This document shows positions 26,784-63,547 of a stretch of DNA of 64,000 nt, in pieces. The notes beneath the pieces are model-generated. The model was given only the letters and a program-made list of their open reading frames with translations, did not search any database and was not told where the DNA came from. The position numbers and the translations under genes are program-made. Position 1 is the first letter of the stretch, and each line of letters opens with the position of its first letter. Source of the DNA: a virus (lineage: Duplodnaviria > Caudoviricetes); IMG/VR virus record IMGVR_UViG_2902759955_000002, positions 107,854 through 171,853 of that record; one strand, written 5' to 3'.

Positions 26784-27377
26784 TCAAACTGTCAGCTGTT
26801 TGGCAGACAACAATCCGAGATAACGCTTAAACAGAGGCGTCGACGACACCTCGTGGCATGCGCTGTACGCATACAATACCTTTAGGATTGCTACGGTTAA
26901 GGCCGTGCGATACCCATCGGCACCGGCTTCTTCAGTGAAGAAACCAGGGTTCACCACGACGCCTACTGCTTCACGCGTGATGTCATAGATATAAAAGGGT
27001 TCTTTGTGGTGCGGGAGGCGCGACTCCGGTGAGAACAGCCGCGCGCGCAACTCTTCGTCGAAGGTAGGATTTTCCAGCAGCGGGAGAATAGTTTGCGAGA
27101 GGAACGTTTTGTTCTGACCTTGCGCGCTGTTCAACCACGCATCCAACAGATAGAGGCTCCACGTTCCGTGGGGTTCTCCCACCATTCGCCCCATCAACAC
27201 CTGCGCGCTTAAAAAGCAGAGCAGGTCATTGGTGCTGGATACCGGGCGCAATTGCTCAAAGTCGAGACAGGCGGACAAAGGAAGCTTGTGGCGAGCGAGT
27301 GTCTCATGCACCCAATAAGGGATGAGCATCACCTGCTTGAGTGGACGGGCAGCGGACACGAATCTTTGCTCCAGCAA
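26784..27377 (-). CDS. Conserved hypothetical protein upstream of MCP (start uncertain, possibly 27329)
   Basis: Open frame of up to 197 aa between DnaB and MCP, as in phiKZ-like genomes. Confidence 0.55.
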   Translation of the reverse strand: MLEQRFVSAARPLKQVMLIPYWVHETLARHKLPLSACLDFEQLRPVSSTNDLLCFLSAQVLMGRMVGEPHGTWSLYLLDAWLNSAQGQNKTFLSQTILPLLENPTFDEELRARLFSPESRLPHHKEPFYIYDITREAVGVVVNPGFFTEEAGADGYRTALTVAILKVLYAYSACHEVSSTPLFKRYLGLLSAKQLTV

Positions 27378-27457
27378 TAAGGGAAGGAAGTAATAAAAAG
27401 AAAACGACGTTTTCTTCTATGTCCCGAGAAATCAAATTCTTCACACTATTTATCAAG

Positions 27458-28663
27458 ATGAACCACAAACTGCTGCTGGTGAAGTGCATTACGCTCCTGT
27501 TCCGTGAGAGCCAGCTGCCGGGGGGTCATGAGAATTCCGCCACCTTGGTGCGCAACGTCATTGCGAATATCAAGGAAGCTCAGATCTCTATCGGTCTGGA
27601 TCACGAACGCGAAGTCACCATCGCACTCAAGAAAATGGCGATCACCATGTGTGAGACGCCCCCTGATCACGAACACGATGTGGACGAAGCGCTGCAGCAA
27701 CTGAAAGTTGCGTGCGGCGAGGATGAAACGCTTTTTGATTCGTTTCGCGAAGGGATCGAAAAGGAACTGACTGAAAACCGCACGAAGAAGATGGCGCTGA
27801 ATCTGCGCCGCTCTTTGAACGAGTATTTCCGCGAGGAGAAGATCCAGGAGATCATCTTCAACGCGTCGAACAAGCTGCGCTTTAACCGCGGGCAGGTCAT
27901 GAACATGAAACAGTTCGTGGCTGAAACCGTGGCGCTTCTCGAGCCGTATCAGGTCGACAGCGAAACGAAGGATCCGGCGATTGTCGCTTCGGTCAATCTC
28001 GCCATGGCCGAAGAGGTCAAAACGATCTTCAAGAATGTGCAGAAGGCCGAGCAGGGCGGGGGGATTCTGCGCACGGGATGGCAAGGCGTGAACCGCATGT
28101 GGCGGGGTGGCTTTCGCCGAGGTCAAGAAGTGGTGATCGGCGCGCTGCAGCACAACTTCAAAACCGGCTTCTCGCTCGGGGCCTTTATCGGCGTGGCACT
28201 TTTCAACACGCCCGAGACAGCATTCCCGGAAATCCTCACACCGAAGAAGCCGCTGCTCTATCGGGTCTCCTTCGAAGACGACCTCGAGCTGAACTTCCAG
28301 TACATGTACGAAGTGCTCATGGCCTACGACGGGCGTGAGAACGAGATTGTCGTCAAGACGAAGGAAGACTTCGAGGCGATGACCGCCGAAGAGCTCGAAG
28401 GCTATATCGACAAGATCTCGGCGTACGTGATGGAGCGCATGCGCGTCAATGGCTTCGAAGTGATCATGGAGCGCGTGAATCCGTCGAACTGGACGTACAT
28501 GCATCTGTGCAATCGGATGCTCGAACTCGAATCCGACGGCTACGAAGTGTTCATGTGCATGGCGGATTACCTACCCATGTTGCCGACCACGGGCTGTCTG
28601 CAAGGTCCGGCCGGCACGGACATGCAGGACATGTACCGTCGTATCCGTAACTTCATGTCGGCT
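27458..28663 (+). CDS. dnaB: DnaB-like replicative helicase, exon 1
   Basis: LRTGWQGVNRM..GGFRRG, variant Walker A GALQHNFKT, SFED, Walker B ADYL; frame stops at the TAA that begins the intron. Confidence 0.85.
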
Positions 28664-29043
28664 TAAAGTAATTTGAAAAACTTGTCAAGGGATTCGAATT
28701 CCAGGCCCTCGTGTAGGAAACTACACAAGTAAAACTCTTTGAATTGACGGGAAACCCCTGAGAGCTCTTCCTACCAAACGCATGGAGCAATTCATGCGCG
28801 GCCAGCGTAATGACCTGGGTACGGTAACAAAGGAAGAGATTGGGCAATCCGCAGCGAAGCTTCTCTGTGAGAAGAACGTTCAACGACTATGGCGTGACTG
28901 CCAGTACCGAGCAAGCGCTTGGGAAGTGAAGAGCACCTGACCGGCCACTGCCGAAGGTGAAGATATAGTCTGCTCCATTGGGAAAGCCAATGGCGGGTGT
29001 CATCGCACACCGGCTCCGTCTAGCGAACGGAGTGGACAACAGG
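28664..29043 (+). ncRNA. Group I self-splicing intron (IA-like, no homing endonuclease)
   Basis: P AATTGACGGG 28742, Q AATCCGCAGC 28846, R GTTCAACGACTA 28878, S AAGATATAGTC 28960; 5' exon ends in U and the intron ends in G; splicing restores NFMSA|KKIAFPTPHQLS. Confidence 0.9.
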
Positions 29044-46896: not shown

Positions 46897-47417
46897 GCGG
46901 CACTCGTGCGCTGGGCGAGGTAGTTCTCGATCGTAGCCCGTGCGGCCTGCGTGAGGGCACTGCCATGTGGCGGGTGAACAAGCCGGCTCAGCATGGTCAG
47001 ACCCAGGCCCTGTTCGAGCAGATTCGCAGCTTCGATGGCCACGAGATCGGTCCGGTCTAACTCCGTGATAACGAGCGTCTCGTTCGTATGGCGATGAACC
47101 ATCGTGAGCGATCCCTGCGCATCCAGAATCGCCTGCGGCCGCTTGGTCACGCAGAACAGGTAGGCCAACCATTCGGCGCGCTCGCCGATCAACTGCTGGA
47201 CCACTTCGCGCTCGCCGAGCCGTACGCCGTCAAACTTGAACGCGTTCGTGCCGTAGATCGAATGGAAGAGACCCGCCAGCTGCACCTGCTCCGGATAGCC
47301 CCATTCAGCCAGCAACTTCTCGGTGCCCAGCAGATGCATGATGAACGCGCGACCGGTGTGACGCGTCATGCCGGTGCCGCGCTCACGCAGGAAAGAGAGG
47401 ATGAGTTCGCGGTTCAT
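46893..47417 (-). CDS. DUF6817-like (HD-related) protein
   Basis: HTGR.FI.HLLGT..LL..WG, AGLFHSIYGT, IGERAE.LAYLFC and EAANLLEQ. Confidence 0.7.
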   Translation of the reverse strand: MNRELILSFLRERGTGMTRHTGRAFIMHLLGTEKLLAEWGYPEQVQLAGLFHSIYGTNAFKFDGVRLGEREVVQQLIGERAEWLAYLFCVTKRPQAILDAQGSLTMVHRHTNETLVITELDRTDLVAIEAANLLEQGLGLTMLSRLVHPPHGSALTQAARATIENYLAQRTSAA

Positions 47418-48019
47418 GCTGCCATTCCTTTCGGAACGACCAACCGAGGCGCCACCTGCGATTTGAAAACGACACACTGACGCAACTCCGGACACTCGCG
47501 TGTCGGCGCGTTCGCTTTGTGCGGGATGTGTCCCGGGAAGCTCACGGCGCGGAACGGCATCGCCGGGACCGCCTTCAGGATGTCGCGCTCGCCAAAGTCG
47601 AAGAACAGCGTCTCGCCGCCCCAGGAACCCTTCCACTGGTCGGCCGCGTAGATGATCGTCGAGTAGTAGTTTTCCGTGTCCTTGTTGTCGACGTGCACGT
47701 AACCTTCGATGCCGTACGTGTGGGCATTGGCATAAACGCGCAGCGGCTCATGCCCCTGCAGAATGGTCTTGGACAGCAGGTCCCACAGTCGCGCGATAGG
47801 GACGGCGTTACGGTTGTTGGCCAGCTCGTCCGCACAACCGGTCCGGTTGTTGTGGTCGCCACCAGCGAAGTGCGCATGCCAGAACTGGAACCGGTCGTTC
47901 TTCGAGTTCGACTTCCAGCCGTACCGCCAGATGTTGCGCTTGAGCAAGGCAAGGATGGATGCCTTGAGTTCTTCGGGCACGAAGTTATCGTGCACAGCTA
48001 TGCGTTCGGCCAGCGACAT
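47414..48019 (-). CDS. 2OG-Fe(II) oxygenase (prolyl-hydroxylase-like)
   Basis: RVYANAH...HVD, W..SWGGET.F, FPG.IPH and R.C.VFK. Confidence 0.85.
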   Translation of the reverse strand: MSLAERIAVHDNFVPEELKASILALLKRNIWRYGWKSNSKNDRFQFWHAHFAGGDHNNRTGCADELANNRNAVPIARLWDLLSKTILQGHEPLRVYANAHTYGIEGYVHVDNKDTENYYSTIIYAADQWKGSWGGETLFFDFGERDILKAVPAMPFRAVSFPGHIPHKANAPTRECPELRQCVVFKSQVAPRLVVPKGMAA

Positions 48020-48700
48020 TTGTTTGCTCGTTTCTGAGGGTTCGGGTTTTACCGCATCCCGCAAAGCACTGTAGTGAACCAAGGCCAATTCCCTGCTCTG
48101 ATGGAGAAACAGCAGAACAAGGAGGGCACAGGGGACCAGCGTCACACAAGACACTGACTCTTACGCACGAGTGTCTCCGAGGAAACACGCGCATGCGCAC
48201 AGAACCGCAATGCACTGCAGGCTGCGCACTGAGAGCGGTGGCTCGATCAGTGGCATGTGCCTTGGCACACGCACTTCGCACAACTTCCTGGTGACATCTT
48301 CAAAGCCAGGCGTACCGATGAAGGGGACATTGCGTCAGCCTTCGCAGTCCGTTCTTCCGCCCAAGGAGAACGTTGGCCATAATCGGTGATAGATAGGCGA
48401 CCGTGACCAAGACGACTTAAACAACGAGAAGGGTTTCAAGATGGTCCATCAAGGAATGCGTCACTCGCTGTCTCCCGACAGTGATCGCGCCCGCGCGCGG
48501 GTGACATACTCTGGCTTCTCGTAACTACCCGGGATGCGGTCCCAGTGTCGTCAAGGTTTCGCAGGCCTTTCACCTGGGTGAGGCGACTGGATACGCGGCA
48601 TTGCACCACGCACCAACCCACTGGGGACTCGAACCCCTCATCAGACAGTTTCCAAGCGATGGCTGGCATCGCTCGCATACCATTACGTACAGGGTAATTC
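48020..48700 (-). ncRNA. Candidate large structured ncRNA with a 5' tRNA-like module
   Basis: No credible ORF; T-arm GGGG-TTCGAGT-CCCC (48623-48637); D-loop-like CGTAATGGTATG; many hairpins. Confidence 0.45.
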
Positions 48701-48889
48701 TTACTGCAACAGTCGCATTACTTCGCGCAGGCGTTCGTAGGTCAGCCCCGCGTTCGCTCGCGCGGTGCCCGGCGGACAAAGCAACAGGTAATCCGTCCAG
48801 GCGGAGGCGGCTGCATCGAGCGAACGCTGTGCGCGCACGCGCGCCATCTCGATGGCGTCTTCTTCGCTCAGAAAGTTGTCGTGAACCAT
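48701..48889 (-). CDS. Small hypothetical protein
   Basis: 62 aa ORF packed directly after the 48904 gene. Confidence 0.5.
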   Translation of the reverse strand: MVHDNFLSEEDAIEMARVRAQRSLDAAASAWTDYLLLCPPGTARANAGLTYERLREVMRLLQ

Positions 48890-48903
48890 GGTGGTCTCGA
48901 TAG

Positions 48904-49344
48904 TTATCGGGGTGCGTGAGGTCCCGGTGCACCATCTCCATCGCTACCGTCGCCATCCCCATCGCCGCCGGCGCCAGGGTCAGGTGCAGGGGGTGGAGGC
49001 GCAACAGCGGGAACATTCGGGAACGGCGCTTCTGCGTTCTGCTTCAGTCGCACGCCCGCGGCCGCCGCGATCATCTGGACGGCGAGGGCGCTTGCCCCGG
49101 TCGCAAAACCCATCTGATTGAAGACGTGGTGAACGTGCGTATCCCAGATCGACATCCAGAGAAACGCCAAGCCGTAAAGCAGGATGAGCGCATACACTAG
49201 CCGGGCCGGGTCGAAGTCGCCATTCCAGTTGGTAAAGCAGTCGGTACAGACTTTCCAGATGGTGTGTCGAATGCGTTTGAGCGTAATGATGGCTTTGGTC
49301 TTTCGCCAAAGCCGCTTTTGCCATGAGATGGGCTTTTGCGTCAT
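48904..49344 (-). CDS. Two-TM membrane protein with a Pro/Gly-Asp tail
   Basis: Basic N-terminus; two hydrophobic helices. Confidence 0.65.
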   Translation of the reverse strand: MTQKPISWQKRLWRKTKAIITLKRIRHTIWKVCTDCFTNWNGDFDPARLVYALILLYGLAFLWMSIWDTHVHHVFNQMGFATGASALAVQMIAAAAGVRLKQNAEAPFPNVPAVAPPPPAPDPGAGGDGDGDGSDGDGAPGPHAPR

Positions 49345-53861: not shown

Positions 53862-54228
53862 CTCCGCGCTCCTCAAAATTGGAATAGCTGTCGATCACAA
53901 CCACCGACACGTCCTTCGGCAGGTCCTTAAATCGTTCAGCCCACACTCTCGGATCAGGGAGCGCTGACCTCGGCGCAGGGTGGATCGACTCTACAGCTTT
54001 CGGGACACCGCCCAGTCGCACACCGAACACATTACCGCGATGCCAGCCCCGTTCCATGAAGTCACTGAAGCCGGTGTACGGGCGAATCGGAGTGAGCGGT
54101 GCCCAGGATGAAATAGAAGGCTCACGCAGCTGACGTGAGATAAGCAAATACTTGCCGGGATGCTTCAGACGGTATTGCTGGCGCATCCGATTAAAACGAA
54201 TGCGGGTTTTGGTTTCTTTGCTGAGCAT
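53854..54228 (-). CDS. Hypothetical protein
   Basis: GGAG RBS. Confidence 0.55.
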   Translation of the reverse strand: MLSKETKTRIRFNRMRQQYRLKHPGKYLLISRQLREPSISSWAPLTPIRPYTGFSDFMERGWHRGNVFGVRLGGVPKAVESIHPAPRSALPDPRVWAERFKDLPKDVSVVVIDSYSNFEERGDV

Positions 54229-54279
54229 GAGCGTTCTCCAAGGAAGGGGACCGGGGAGGGCCTGCTTCCGTAGGGTTGG

Positions 54280-56363: not shown

Positions 56364-56504
56364 CGGCATAAAGCCCGGGATTGCTCCCGGGCGATATACC
56401 TCGAAGCGCAACCGACTCGGTCTGATTCGACAGTACAGTCAGCGGCAGGTTAGTGCATGCAAAGTAAAGGACATAGTTTCACGTCCGGTTACGCTTCGAC
56501 TCAC

Positions 56505-56580
56505 TGGCAAGGGTGGCAGGAATCGAACCTACGACACGCGGAATCAAAATCCGCTGCTCTACCAACTGAGCTACACCCCT
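56505..56580 (-). tRNA. tRNA-Gln(TTG)
   Basis: 76-nt cloverleaf; anticodon arm GCGGA-TTTTGAT-TCCGC; encoded CCA. Confidence 0.9.
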
Positions 56581-56586
56581 AGAGTG

Positions 56587-56678
56587 TGGCGGAGAGGGTG
56601 AGCTTCGAAGTCACGGAAGGCCCTCAAGCCCTCACTGGTTTTCGAGACCAGCGCCTTCGACCGCTCGGCCGCCTCTCC
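56587..56678 (-). tRNA. tRNA-Ser(CGA) with atypical T-arm
   Basis: Anticodon arm CTGGT-CTCGAAA-ACCAG; long variable arm; G73 + CCA; T-arm GTGAC-TTCGAAG-CTCAC. Confidence 0.82.
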
Positions 56679-56694
56679 TAGATACTGCTGAAAC

Positions 56695-56772
56695 TGGCTC
56701 CGTGACCTGGGCTCGAACCAGGGACCTCCGGCTTAACAGGCCGGCGCAATCTACCAACTGAGCTATCACGGA
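56695..56772 (-). tRNA. tRNA-Asn(GTT)
   Basis: Anticodon arm CCGGC-CTGTTAA-GCCGG; CCA; 2-nt insertion in the D-stem 3' strand. Confidence 0.85.
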
Positions 56773-56786
56773 TCTACTACGGAAAC

Positions 56787-56873
56787 TGGTGGGCAGGGTT
56801 GGATTTGAACCAACGAAGGCGCTAGGCCACCAGATTTACAGTCTGGCCTCTTTAACCACTCGAGCACCTACCC
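56787..56873 (-). tRNA. tRNA-Tyr(GTA)
   Basis: Anticodon arm CCAGA-CTGTAAA-TCTGG; long variable arm; A73 + CCA. Confidence 0.92.
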
Positions 56874-56879
56874 AGGGTG

Positions 56880-57540
56880 TAGGAACAACAACCCGATTTA
56901 TTCCTCGTGATCCTTTTCGGATCCTTGTCAGTTGTCTTCACCGGCAGCACATGCGTCCACCGGATGCGGCGCCTACGGACCGCCGGTCCGTGCTACCTTG
57001 ACGCCGGTTGATTAGTCCGGCCCGACAATTAAGAGGTATGACTCGATTCACCCCAGCTGACCCCGCCATCAGTCGGTGCCTTCTGAATGGGTGCGTGCCG
57101 TTGAGTCTACTTCCGCTGCCCGCGCCTCGAAGGCGGACAGTAGCCATGAATCTGCAGAGCGGCCTAAAAGGTTGCCTGGCGATGGGGAGGACCCATTAAC
57201 ATGGTTCTTGCTTCGATTAGTGCGGTTGCAACTGTTACGTCGAGTATGGTCATTGCTCTCTGAGGCGGGATTCGAACCCGCATCTGACTTTCGTCACACC
57301 CAATGACAGGCGGCCAGTGTAATCCCCTTGGGAGGGAGCTGATTCACTGACGTGAGCTTCTTGCCTTTCGGCTCATCCCTTTATATACCGATTTCACCAC
57401 TCGTCTCTTCGTAATCGTCTTACCTACTTTGGCGCGTACAGCGAACATCTTTCAATGTCCGCGTCACGGCTAAGGTTTGGGTCTGAGGTCCCTCGTCCGT
57501 GAATTGTGCTGCTCCTACATAGAAATAGGCTTGCAGTGTA
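56880..57540 (-). ncRNA. Candidate large structured ncRNA with an embedded tRNA-Leu-like module
   Basis: ORF-free; D-arm-like GTGGTGAAATCGGTATA (57384-57400) and perfect T-arm GCGGG-TTCGAAT-CCCGC (57265-57281) ~100 nt apart; many hairpins; directly upstream of the tRNA cluster. Confidence 0.5.
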
Positions 57541-57545
57541 AAAAA

Positions 57546-62896: not shown

Positions 62897-63547
62897 TTAC
62901 GACGCGACTTTCGCGACGGTCGGGAACGGATACTTGCCGACGTAGTCGGTGGTGTAAGCGCTCGTGTAACCCTGGACGGTCGTCAGATCGGTCGCCGCGA
63001 TGATCTTGGCGGTCTCCGTCACCCGTGCGACTTCGGTATGCTTCAGGTTGCCCTGATAGGCGGCTTCCTGAGCAAGGACGGCCACGGCCTCCTGCGTGAG
63101 CGACAAACCGCTTGCGTTTGCCGAGGCGAGGAGCGTCGGATAATTGCCTGGCACGATCGTCGATCCCGCTGCGACGTCTGCCTGATATTGGGTCGCCTCC
63201 GCCTGCTTGAGCTGATAGGCGAAGAACTGACCCACCAGCGTTTTCGCATAGAGGTGACGCGAGTTGCCGATGGCTTCGGTCAAGGCCTGCAGTGCCGCGC
63301 ACTTGGCGCTCAGCAGCGCGACCGCTGACGCATCGGCCGCAGCAATCGCCGTTGCGGTGAGCGACTTGGCGCTCGCGTCATACACGTAGCCCGTGACGGT
63401 GCTGTTGTTAAAGCCAGCCGGCTTGGCCGTATGGAAGCGCGCTACCGACAACACACCCGTCTTGGTGAGCGGCTGCAGGTAGTTGTTGTACGCGTCGTTA
63501 TAGAAGATCGCGCGGCCCGACGAGGGCACGTAATAGACGAAAAACAT
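62897..63547 (-). CDS. Tail-fibre-assembly-like protein
   Basis: Y.LKQAEA.QY...YPTLLA.A...G.SL...A..VL pattern; GGGAG RBS. Confidence 0.5.
   Translation of the reverse strand: MFFVYYVPSSGRAIFYNDAYNNYLQPLTKTGVLSVARFHTAKPAGFNNSTVTGYVYDASAKSLTATAIAAADASAVALLSAKCAALQALTEAIGNSRHLYAKTLVGQFFAYQLKQAEATQYQADVAAGSTIVPGNYPTLLASANASGLSLTQEAVAVLAQEAAYQGNLKHTEVARVTETAKIIAATDLTTVQGYTSAYTTDYVGKYPFPTVAKVAS

Follow-up and report, generated by a model that had tools for sequence, protein, structure and literature searches.

On the minus strand of the window analysed here, a 64,000 nt stretch of viral DNA (IMG/VR record IMGVR_UViG_2902759955_000002, positions 107,854 to 171,853), a 681 nt gap at 48020-48700 separates the end of a 62-aa open reading frame (ORF; end at 48701) from the ATG at 48019 of a gene for a 2-oxoglutarate (2OG)-Fe(II)-oxygenase-like protein. 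Comparative and folding evidence indicates that the head of this gap is quite probably a type I hammerhead ribozyme of 250 nt (48649-48400), and the predicted element is a structurally new member of that class, linked to a large phage RNA without an Rfam match. A leader, the hammerhead (48649-48400), cutting after C48405, and a folded domain of ~360 nt are likely to make up a single transcript unit. Cleavage in vivo is predicted with less confidence than the hammerhead assignment itself.

An initial annotation of the region, made from the sequence alone, had proposed an undescribed large RNA headed by an aberrant tRNA-like module that might act as a processing signal. The large RNA stands, as it is conserved, structured, non-coding and without an Rfam family, and the head does resemble a processing signal, having a hammerhead core, a three-helix junction and a predicted cleavage site. 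The tRNA-like module does not: neither ARAGORN nor the Rfam tRNA model matches it, the acceptor and D elements are not conserved in relatives, and the flanks of its hairpin are the hammerhead core.

Elements of the predicted hammerhead

All features described here are on the minus strand unless stated otherwise. The two strands of stem I, ACUGU (5′ strand, 48645-48649) and ACGGU (3′ strand, 48400-48404), pair both in the closure search and in the minimum free energy (MFE) fold. The core segment C3 to A9, CUGAUGA (48638-48644), was located by string match and reads CUGANGA in relatives; position N7 is U in 13 of 20 relatives, A in six and C in one. Branched stem II (48561-48637) consists, in the MFE fold, of the closing pair G10.1 (48637)-C11.1 (48561), hairpin 1 (GGG-UUCGAGU-CCC, 48636-48624), an inserted hairpin (about 48621-48577) and hairpin 2 (CAGG-UGAAAGG-CCUG, 48576-48562). 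It is followed by the second core segment, G12-A13-A14 (GAA, 48558-48560), found by string match and present in the relatives. Stem III (48406-48557), given by the closure search and the MFE fold, pairs ACC-UU-GACGAC (48557-48547) with GUCGUC-UU-GGU (48416-48406) around an insert of 130 nt, within which lies the hairpin CUGUC-GGGA-GACAG (48481-48468). The closure search places C17 at 48405, the last base of the triplet GUC (48407-48405), so that cleavage is predicted 3′ of this base, between 48405 and 48404, and the stem I 3′ strand would form the 5′ end of the released RNA. An unconstrained MFE fold of 48395-48655 returns stem I, an unpaired CUGAUGA, hairpins 1 and 2, GAA and stem III.

The CUGANGA...GAA core, three helices, an A15.1-U16.1 pair, an NUH cleavage site and both RNA ends in stem I are the features of a type I hammerhead. 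The element differs from that type in that stem II is a three- or four-way branch bearing two covarying, conserved 7 nt loops (UNCRAGU and UGNAANG), stem III encloses about 125-220 nt in the jumbo-phage members, and stem I is only 4-6 bp long, without loop or bulge. In compact members the order is stem I strand, CUGANGA, stem II, GAA, stem III hairpin, U-H and stem I strand. The three nucleotides 5′ of stem I are purine- or A-rich (GAA, GAU, AAA and similar) in most of the 20 relatives, and no covarying partner was found for them.

Other ways of closing the junction were considered and rejected. A canonical stem I beside GGUA at about 48518 has strands that do not pair, a type III permutation via the leader allows no pairing, and the GACAG of the conserved hairpin is preceded by G, which discounts it as the stem I partner.

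Relatives of the element

Two IMG/VR contigs of 324 and 285 kb, found through the oxygenase protein, have in syntenic position a non-coding stretch that is partly conserved. Conservation in it is highest at ACUGUCUGAUGAG, which precedes a hairpin, and at CAGGUGAAANGCCUGCGAAA. With CAGGUGAAANGCCUGCGAAA alone as the pattern, eight stretches were returned, six of which have CUGANGA and a hairpin upstream that the pattern had not demanded. The core was thus noticed before it was searched for, in loci found via the oxygenase protein and in six of the eight stretches returned by the 3′ module. Generalised patterns were then scanned over viral, metagenome and genome collections and raised the total to 20 distinct cores. 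Roughly half of the contigs they come from are longer than 200 kb, and one locus comes from a Caballeronia arationis assembly.

Individual patterns differed in their yield. Among the 39 stretches matching CTGANGANNNGTGCAAGTC, 12 have the 3′ module and a thirteenth (L119) fits the generalised pattern, the rest being coding or chance matches. The pattern CGGTANGCC..GGAAGTTGT was rejected: nearly all of its 77 stretches are chance matches, the known members among them being only L007, L008 and L045, with L021 as a possible addition. The five closest sequences are those of the window, L002, L003, L007 and L127, and a stem III and stem I closure was located in 18 of the 20 relatives.

Comparative tests of the junction

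In the 18 relatives with a located closure, the four inner pairs of stem I are standard throughout, with four pair types each. The 15.1-16.1 pair (A48557-U48406 in the window) is A-U in 17 and G-C in one, and the 15.2-16.2 pair is standard in all 18, in four types. Position 17 is C in eight, A in seven and U in three, G having been barred by the search rule; the GUC of the window likewise conforms to NUH by that rule. Hairpins 1 and 2 of stem II have standard pairs in 20/20 relatives, with up to four pair types. In L002, L003, L007 and L127 the stem III closure falls at the corresponding position but differs in sequence.

As a control, the sequence downstream was shuffled 300 times and scores equal to or above that observed were counted. 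The window closure was reached in 7/300 shuffles, those of L007, L009, L113, L122, L126 and L127 in none, and that of L135 in one. Compact forms gave 4 to 17/300, a conservative figure because the true site is adjacent.

Three compact members on unrelated contigs (L128, L130 and L006) served to build a covariance model (R1); a MAFFT alignment of six compact hammerheads was left out of the model because it misaligned stem III. The best match of R1 in the 64 kb window is at 48542-48649 (23.7 bits, E = 1.7e-4). Across 57 loci the model found 21 sites at E ≤ 0.01; each belongs to a pattern-defined member, and the loci with chance matches contributed none. Over 151 genomes of the family it returned no match and likewise missed the window's own site, in a run where only some candidates were scored and E-values were calculated per whole genome, and which is no evidence of absence. 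A weak second match in the window (63244-63321, minus strand; 13.6 bits, E = 0.16) has CUGCUGAG in place of CUGAUGAG and is probably due to chance.

Several observations weigh against the hammerhead assignment. CUGANGA and GAA were fixed in most of the patterns, making their invariance across the 20 cores largely a matter of construction, and the closure features are partly circular because the search demanded pairing and a non-G at position 17. The 10.1-11.1 pair, G48637-C48561 in the window, is G-C in 14 of 20 relatives, and in the other six is U/C, A/C or C/C. The folding energy of the hammerhead part is ordinary (z = -1.18). The shuffle control is weak for L002 (26/300) and L003 (42/300); the closure search missed L125, where the stem is interrupted and was placed by eye, and returned no closure for L119 or the truncated L121. 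Stem I is short, open and without a loop, and the usual contact between stem I and loop II was not identified. Finally, the Rfam hammerhead models compared (Hammerhead_1, Hammerhead_3, Hammerhead_II, HH9 and HH10) show no match at E ≤ 10 in 47900-48900, in 48390-48660 or in the compact relative L128, which we tentatively attribute to the branching of stem II.

Covariation between the stem II loops

Stem II is built in the relatives from a closing pair, hairpin 1 with loop UNCRAGU, a linker or third hairpin, and hairpin 2 with loop UGNAANG. Loop 1 is UGCAAGU in 12 of the 20 relatives and UUCGAGU in the window. Position 2 of loop 1 and position 6 of loop 2 occur only as G:C (five), G:A (seven) and U:G (eight) among the 20 (Fisher p = 8e-6, uncorrected for kinship), and the pair switches within each of three separate groups. 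The generalised patterns left these two positions open but prescribed the C and G next to them.

The covariation suggests that the two loops form a tertiary inter-loop pair. In the tRNA elbow the T-loop and D-loop are joined by the contacts G18-psi55 and G19-C56, and double T-loop modules are also found in RNase P, T-box stem I and the L1 stalk. The putative inter-loop pair, with the C and G beside it, may parallel G18-psi55 and G19-C56: as in the elbow and the double T-loop modules, there are two 7 nt loops with the U...A spacing of a T-loop, and covarying positions stand beside fixed C and G positions. The RNA differs from a tRNA in having no cloverleaf, acceptor stem or anticodon, and its putative contact is read from the covariation. 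The tRNA-elbow mimic of the initial annotation thus survives in a changed form, as two covarying stem II loops that would recall a T-loop/D-loop contact; its tRNA origin does not. Similarly, the hairpin taken for a T-arm, GGGG-UUCGAGU-CCCC (48637-48623), is indeed conserved, as stem II hairpin 1 of the hammerhead and not as part of a tRNA.

Leader and inner hairpin

Upstream of stem I lies a leader with the motif AUGGUAUGCG (48674-48683), in which AU..UAUGCG is invariant in the alignment of all five close sequences. The corresponding DNA string ATNNTATGCG occurs twice in the window, at 48674-48683 and at 26868-26877 (both on the minus strand), the latter ~80 nt upstream of the major head protein ORF. 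It is treated as a lead only, since two matches compare with 1.09 expected by chance. The motif is a possible phage promoter, used by the phage's own polymerase, or a possible transcript start; a scan for sigma-70 promoters in 47800-49000 gave no sites. Between the motif and stem I is the hairpin AGCGAUG-CCAGC-CAUCGCU (48655-48673), which had been placed in the position of an anticodon arm. A hairpin is kept at this position in all five close sequences, as judged by eye for L002, L003, L007 and L127, but the sequences are unrelated.

The hairpin inside stem III is CUGUC-GNGA-GACAG in four of the five close sequences and CUGUC-GGGAU-GACAG in L003. It repeats the stem I 5′ strand together with C3 (ACUGUC), and therefore an alternative pairing with the stem I strands is possible, which could be a conformational switch.

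The downstream RNA domain

The hammerhead is followed by a structured RNA domain of ~360 nt (48045-48404), delimited by MFE folding, RNAalifold and conserved blocks. The blocks are CGGUACGCC (48317-48309), AAGUUGU (48286-48280), which pairs with GGUACG in the RNAalifold structure, and CGCAGCCUGCAG (48226-48215) and GGGAUGCG (48060-48053), which pair with each other in a long-range helix. The MFE of the domain has a z-score of -3.21, none of 100 shuffled sequences being as stable. With the five closest sequences as input, RNAalifold predicts 12 helices comprising 88 pairs, and 89.7% of the alignment cells pair, compared with 38-47% when the partners are slid. Pairs changed on both sides number 36, against 4-9 with slid partners, and none of 500 shuffles reached any of the observed measures; this covariation is tempered by the small set of five sequences, two of them close kin, and by the structure having been derived from the same alignment.

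Three of the domain blocks recur in four other phage groups, with the hammerhead upstream wherever the flanking sequence is covered. L006 (2715-2955), L128 and L130 have a different-looking conserved long RNA after the same hammerhead variant, with the shared block CCUGCUG.GGUUAA..AUGAAUUGCGGA.C.AUAGG, and in L128, L131 and L132 this second long RNA is followed by a tRNA cluster ~1 kb further on. A stem and U-run stand directly after the domain in L002, L003, L009 and L124. In the window, a terminator scan of 47800-49000 found one terminator-like site, inside the domain, which is no more than shuffled sequence gives. The genes downstream differ between phage groups, and same-strand tRNA genes lie within ~1.5 kb in 9 of 26 related loci scanned.

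Some individual loci have arrangements of their own. In L134 (3735-3830, plus strand) a tRNA-Asn ends 15 nt before stem I; its sisters L125 and L133 have the same tRNAs ~300-600 nt upstream, with an ORF end between. In the compact form of L005 (4350-4420, minus strand) the stem I 3′ strand is GGAGG(U), which resembles a Shine-Dalgarno sequence and precedes the next ORF's ATG by 8 nt, so that the predicted cleavage lies just upstream of what would be a sequestered ribosome-binding site. This locus also gave a good score for another, long-range closure, 351 nt downstream.

Known RNA families

The Rfam search (cmscan) proposed in the initial annotation confirmed that no known family occupies the region. 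At gathering scores the only matches in the whole window are a group I intron (28684-28993) and four tRNAs, and these four (56505-56873, minus strand) are also the only tRNAs that ARAGORN reports, none being in the gap. At E ≤ 10, no match was obtained in 47900-48900 to tRNA, hammerhead, GOLLD, ROOL, OLE, HEARO or other large RNAs, and in six related loci no hammerhead, tRNA or large-RNA match appeared at E ≤ 1. Likenesses of the region to a group I intron, RNase P or transfer-messenger RNA are supported by no model; Intron_gpI has no match in the gap, which is intergenic and not within a gene. A blastn search of the region against the phage collection, at a setting for distant similarity, returned no similar DNA.

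The sub-threshold Rfam items are the mascRNA T-arm (a 15 nt match to hairpin 1, E = 4.3), cHP, mir-21 and pemK, all judged to be chance. The pemK RNA motif (RF02913) aligns below threshold with the compact relative L128, over two adjacent hairpins of which the second is GGGUGAAA..CCC (12.9 bits, E = 2.9). This score is far under the gathering score of 34.8 and the window has no such match; the likeness is judged to be chance or at the level of a motif.

The gap and its coding content

The extent of the gap, 48020-48700, follows from the downstream gene beginning at ATG 48019, with homologues aligning from residue 3. All strings quoted in the initial annotation, including its other hairpins, were found on the minus strand: among them are the stop TAA (48703-48701), ACCCUG, UACGUAAUGGUAUGC, and the leader, stem II and stem III hairpins located above. 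The description of the gap as free of ORFs is literally incorrect, as it holds ORFs of 80 aa (48436-48678, minus strand), 98 aa (47985-48281, minus strand) and 72 aa (48171-48389, plus strand), but it holds in the sense of non-coding. None of the three has a Pfam or PHROG match at E ≤ 0.1 or a tblastn match at E ≤ 0.01 in seven related loci, whereas the flanking 146-aa protein and the oxygenase do match by tblastn in those loci.

The gap had also been called exceptional in so densely coded a genome. By a crude gene map based on G+C content at third codon positions (GC3), 87.5% of the window is coding, and the gap is among the longest such stretches in it but not unique: 56364-57545 (1182 nt, holding the four tRNAs) is longer, and other ORF-poor stretches on the same map are 219-814 (596 nt) and 53877-54279 (403 nt). 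The ~670 nt upstream of the four tRNAs (56874-57545) are without assigned content.

Proposed processing and alternatives

If the hammerhead is active, a single minus-strand transcript unit would comprise a short leader, the ribozyme (48649-48400) and the folded domain (48404 to ~48045), and would cleave itself after C48405. The leader and ribozyme body would stay on the upstream RNA with a 2′,3′-cyclic phosphate, while the downstream domain would be released with a 5′-hydroxyl end, and it is plausible that both RNAs would gain defined, nuclease-resistant ends. In the relatives with a stem and U-run as terminator (L002, L003, L009 and L124), the product would be a discrete non-coding RNA. The window phage has no visible terminator, and therefore the domain may stay joined to the oxygenase mRNA as its 5′ part. 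Our best guess is that the domain serves jumbo phages as an independent RNA with a structural or scaffold role, stabilised and end-defined by the ribozyme, in a setting comparable to that of GOLLD and ROOL.

A junction that is real but cleaves no longer, or only conditionally, would leave ~650 nt as one continuous structured RNA in which the junction is architectural or a regulated switch. The alternative pairing permitted by the conserved hairpin in stem III, whose arms repeat the stem I strands, is consistent with this, as are the mismatched 10.1-11.1 pair in 6/20 relatives and a stem II that is more elaborate and more highly conserved than catalysis needs. All catalytic core positions and a cleavable NUH site are nevertheless kept in 18/18 located closures, and since their retention would be hard to explain if the RNA never cleaved, we regard this reading as improbable. 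It is decidedly improbable that the element is a cis-regulatory 5′ leader of the 2OG-oxygenase gene, such as a ligand- or factor-responsive ribozyme or a riboswitch-like RNA, instead of an independent RNA gene. The stretch from the domain to ATG 48019 has no predicted terminator, and oxygenase paralogues also follow the RNA in L002 and L003, yet the same two loci, with L009 and L124, have the stem and U-run directly after the domain, the downstream genes vary between groups, and no oxygenase match was found in the stretches of L007 and L127 searched. The operon link made in the initial annotation accordingly applies to the window but is not general, as a terminator intervenes in L002 and L003.

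There is very little chance that a degenerate tRNA, or a mimic of one, stands at the head of the RNA and serves as a docking signal for RNase P or a protein. The resemblance that prompts the idea is real enough: hairpin 1 of the window is a perfect T-arm lookalike, with its short mascRNA match, the loop-loop covariation is elbow-like, and tRNA genes stand nearby on the same strand in 9/26 loci. The comparative data contradict it, because the hairpin is flanked by the hammerhead core, the acceptor and D elements are not conserved, what was taken for an anticodon arm persists as a hairpin but not in sequence, and the region has neither an ARAGORN prediction nor a match to the Rfam tRNA model. 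That the gap hides an overlooked or decaying protein-coding gene is scarcely credible, despite its ORFs of 72-98 aa; these lack family matches and have no tblastn match in seven related loci that do share conserved DNA blocks, and the conservation tracks RNA helices with compensatory changes.

The ribozyme-headed RNA may also be read in a more far-reaching way, in which the hammerhead, with stem II rebuilt as an elbow-like module of two T-loop-type hairpins locked by the inter-loop pair, is the 5′ processing head of an undescribed class of large RNAs, in jumbo phages with head and virion proteins that match large PHROG families. The elbow would either dock in the large RNA or be recognised by an elbow-binding partner, for instance RNase P, a tRNA-modifying enzyme or even tRNA, and cleavage, with the release that follows from it, would be conditional. 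As a whole this is speculative and rather unlikely; if true, it would be the first natural allosteric or factor-gated hammerhead.

Genome setting

The phage contig carrying the window (at its positions 172968-236967) is 286,074 bp long with an even GC content of 58.3%, in a whole assembly of 7.68 Mb and 62.9% GC. PHROG matches in the window include a major head protein, virion structural proteins, helicases and a polymerase-like protein. Because of its length of 286 kb, its even GC content, which differs from that of the assembly, and these matches, the contig is read as a jumbo-phage genome assembled together with a bacterial genome.

The RNA does lie upstream of a 2OG-Fe(II)-oxygenase-like gene, as first described. 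The gene (47414-48019), which is downstream context and outside the RNA, matches phrog_274 (E = 6e-20) and Pfam 2OG-FeII_Oxy_3 (E = 0.0015, under the curated cut-off), and by tblastn its only matches in the phage collection are distant ones, to cyanophage 2OG-Fe(II) oxygenases at ~30% identity. Just upstream of the RNA is the 62-aa ORF (48701-48889), which has a coding-like GC3 of 0.73, no family match and no tblastn match in seven related loci. In L002 and L003 the RNA comes directly after a homologue of the 146-aa protein.

Elsewhere in the window, the group I intron at 28684-28993 (plus strand; Rfam Intron_gpI, 80.7 bits, E = 6.5e-19) directly follows a DnaB-like helicase ORF (27341-28666, plus strand; phrog_3213). 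The helicase gene is probably split by this intron.

Discussion

GOLLD and ROOL are large, multi-helix, conserved non-coding RNAs of phage genomes, often found near tRNA genes. Described as large ornate RNAs of phages and prophages (PMC12286853), they resemble the RNA of the window in size, multiple helices, conservation, lack of coding content and phage setting, and tRNA genes are near it in 9 of 26 loci. It differs from them in matching neither Rfam model, in being headed by a predicted self-cleaving ribozyme and in occurring chiefly on contigs longer than 200 kb. Hammerheads have been recorded in phages and prophages (Perreault et al. 2011, PMC3088659), and the predicted element shares with those known phage hammerheads an intergenic position between transcription units (PMC3088659). 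In the open full-text literature, a scope that excludes subscription journals and supplements, no description was found of hammerheads whose stem II is branched or bears T-loops, of jumbo-phage hammerheads or of this large RNA; Figures S6-S8 of PMC3088659, on variant hammerheads, may bear on its novelty.

In engineered ligand-controlled hammerheads the sensor sits in stem II. A natural form that has a conserved additional module in this stem is thus relevant to RNA engineers, the site coinciding with that of the sensor, and the covarying inter-loop pair is a directly testable structural prediction. Among self-cleaving RNAs the hammerheads have received the most study, and since this form of them escapes the curated models, censuses of phage ribozymes are probably incomplete. 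For jumbo phages, the element offers an entry into what large ornate phage RNAs do and why phages would define RNA ends by ribozymes.

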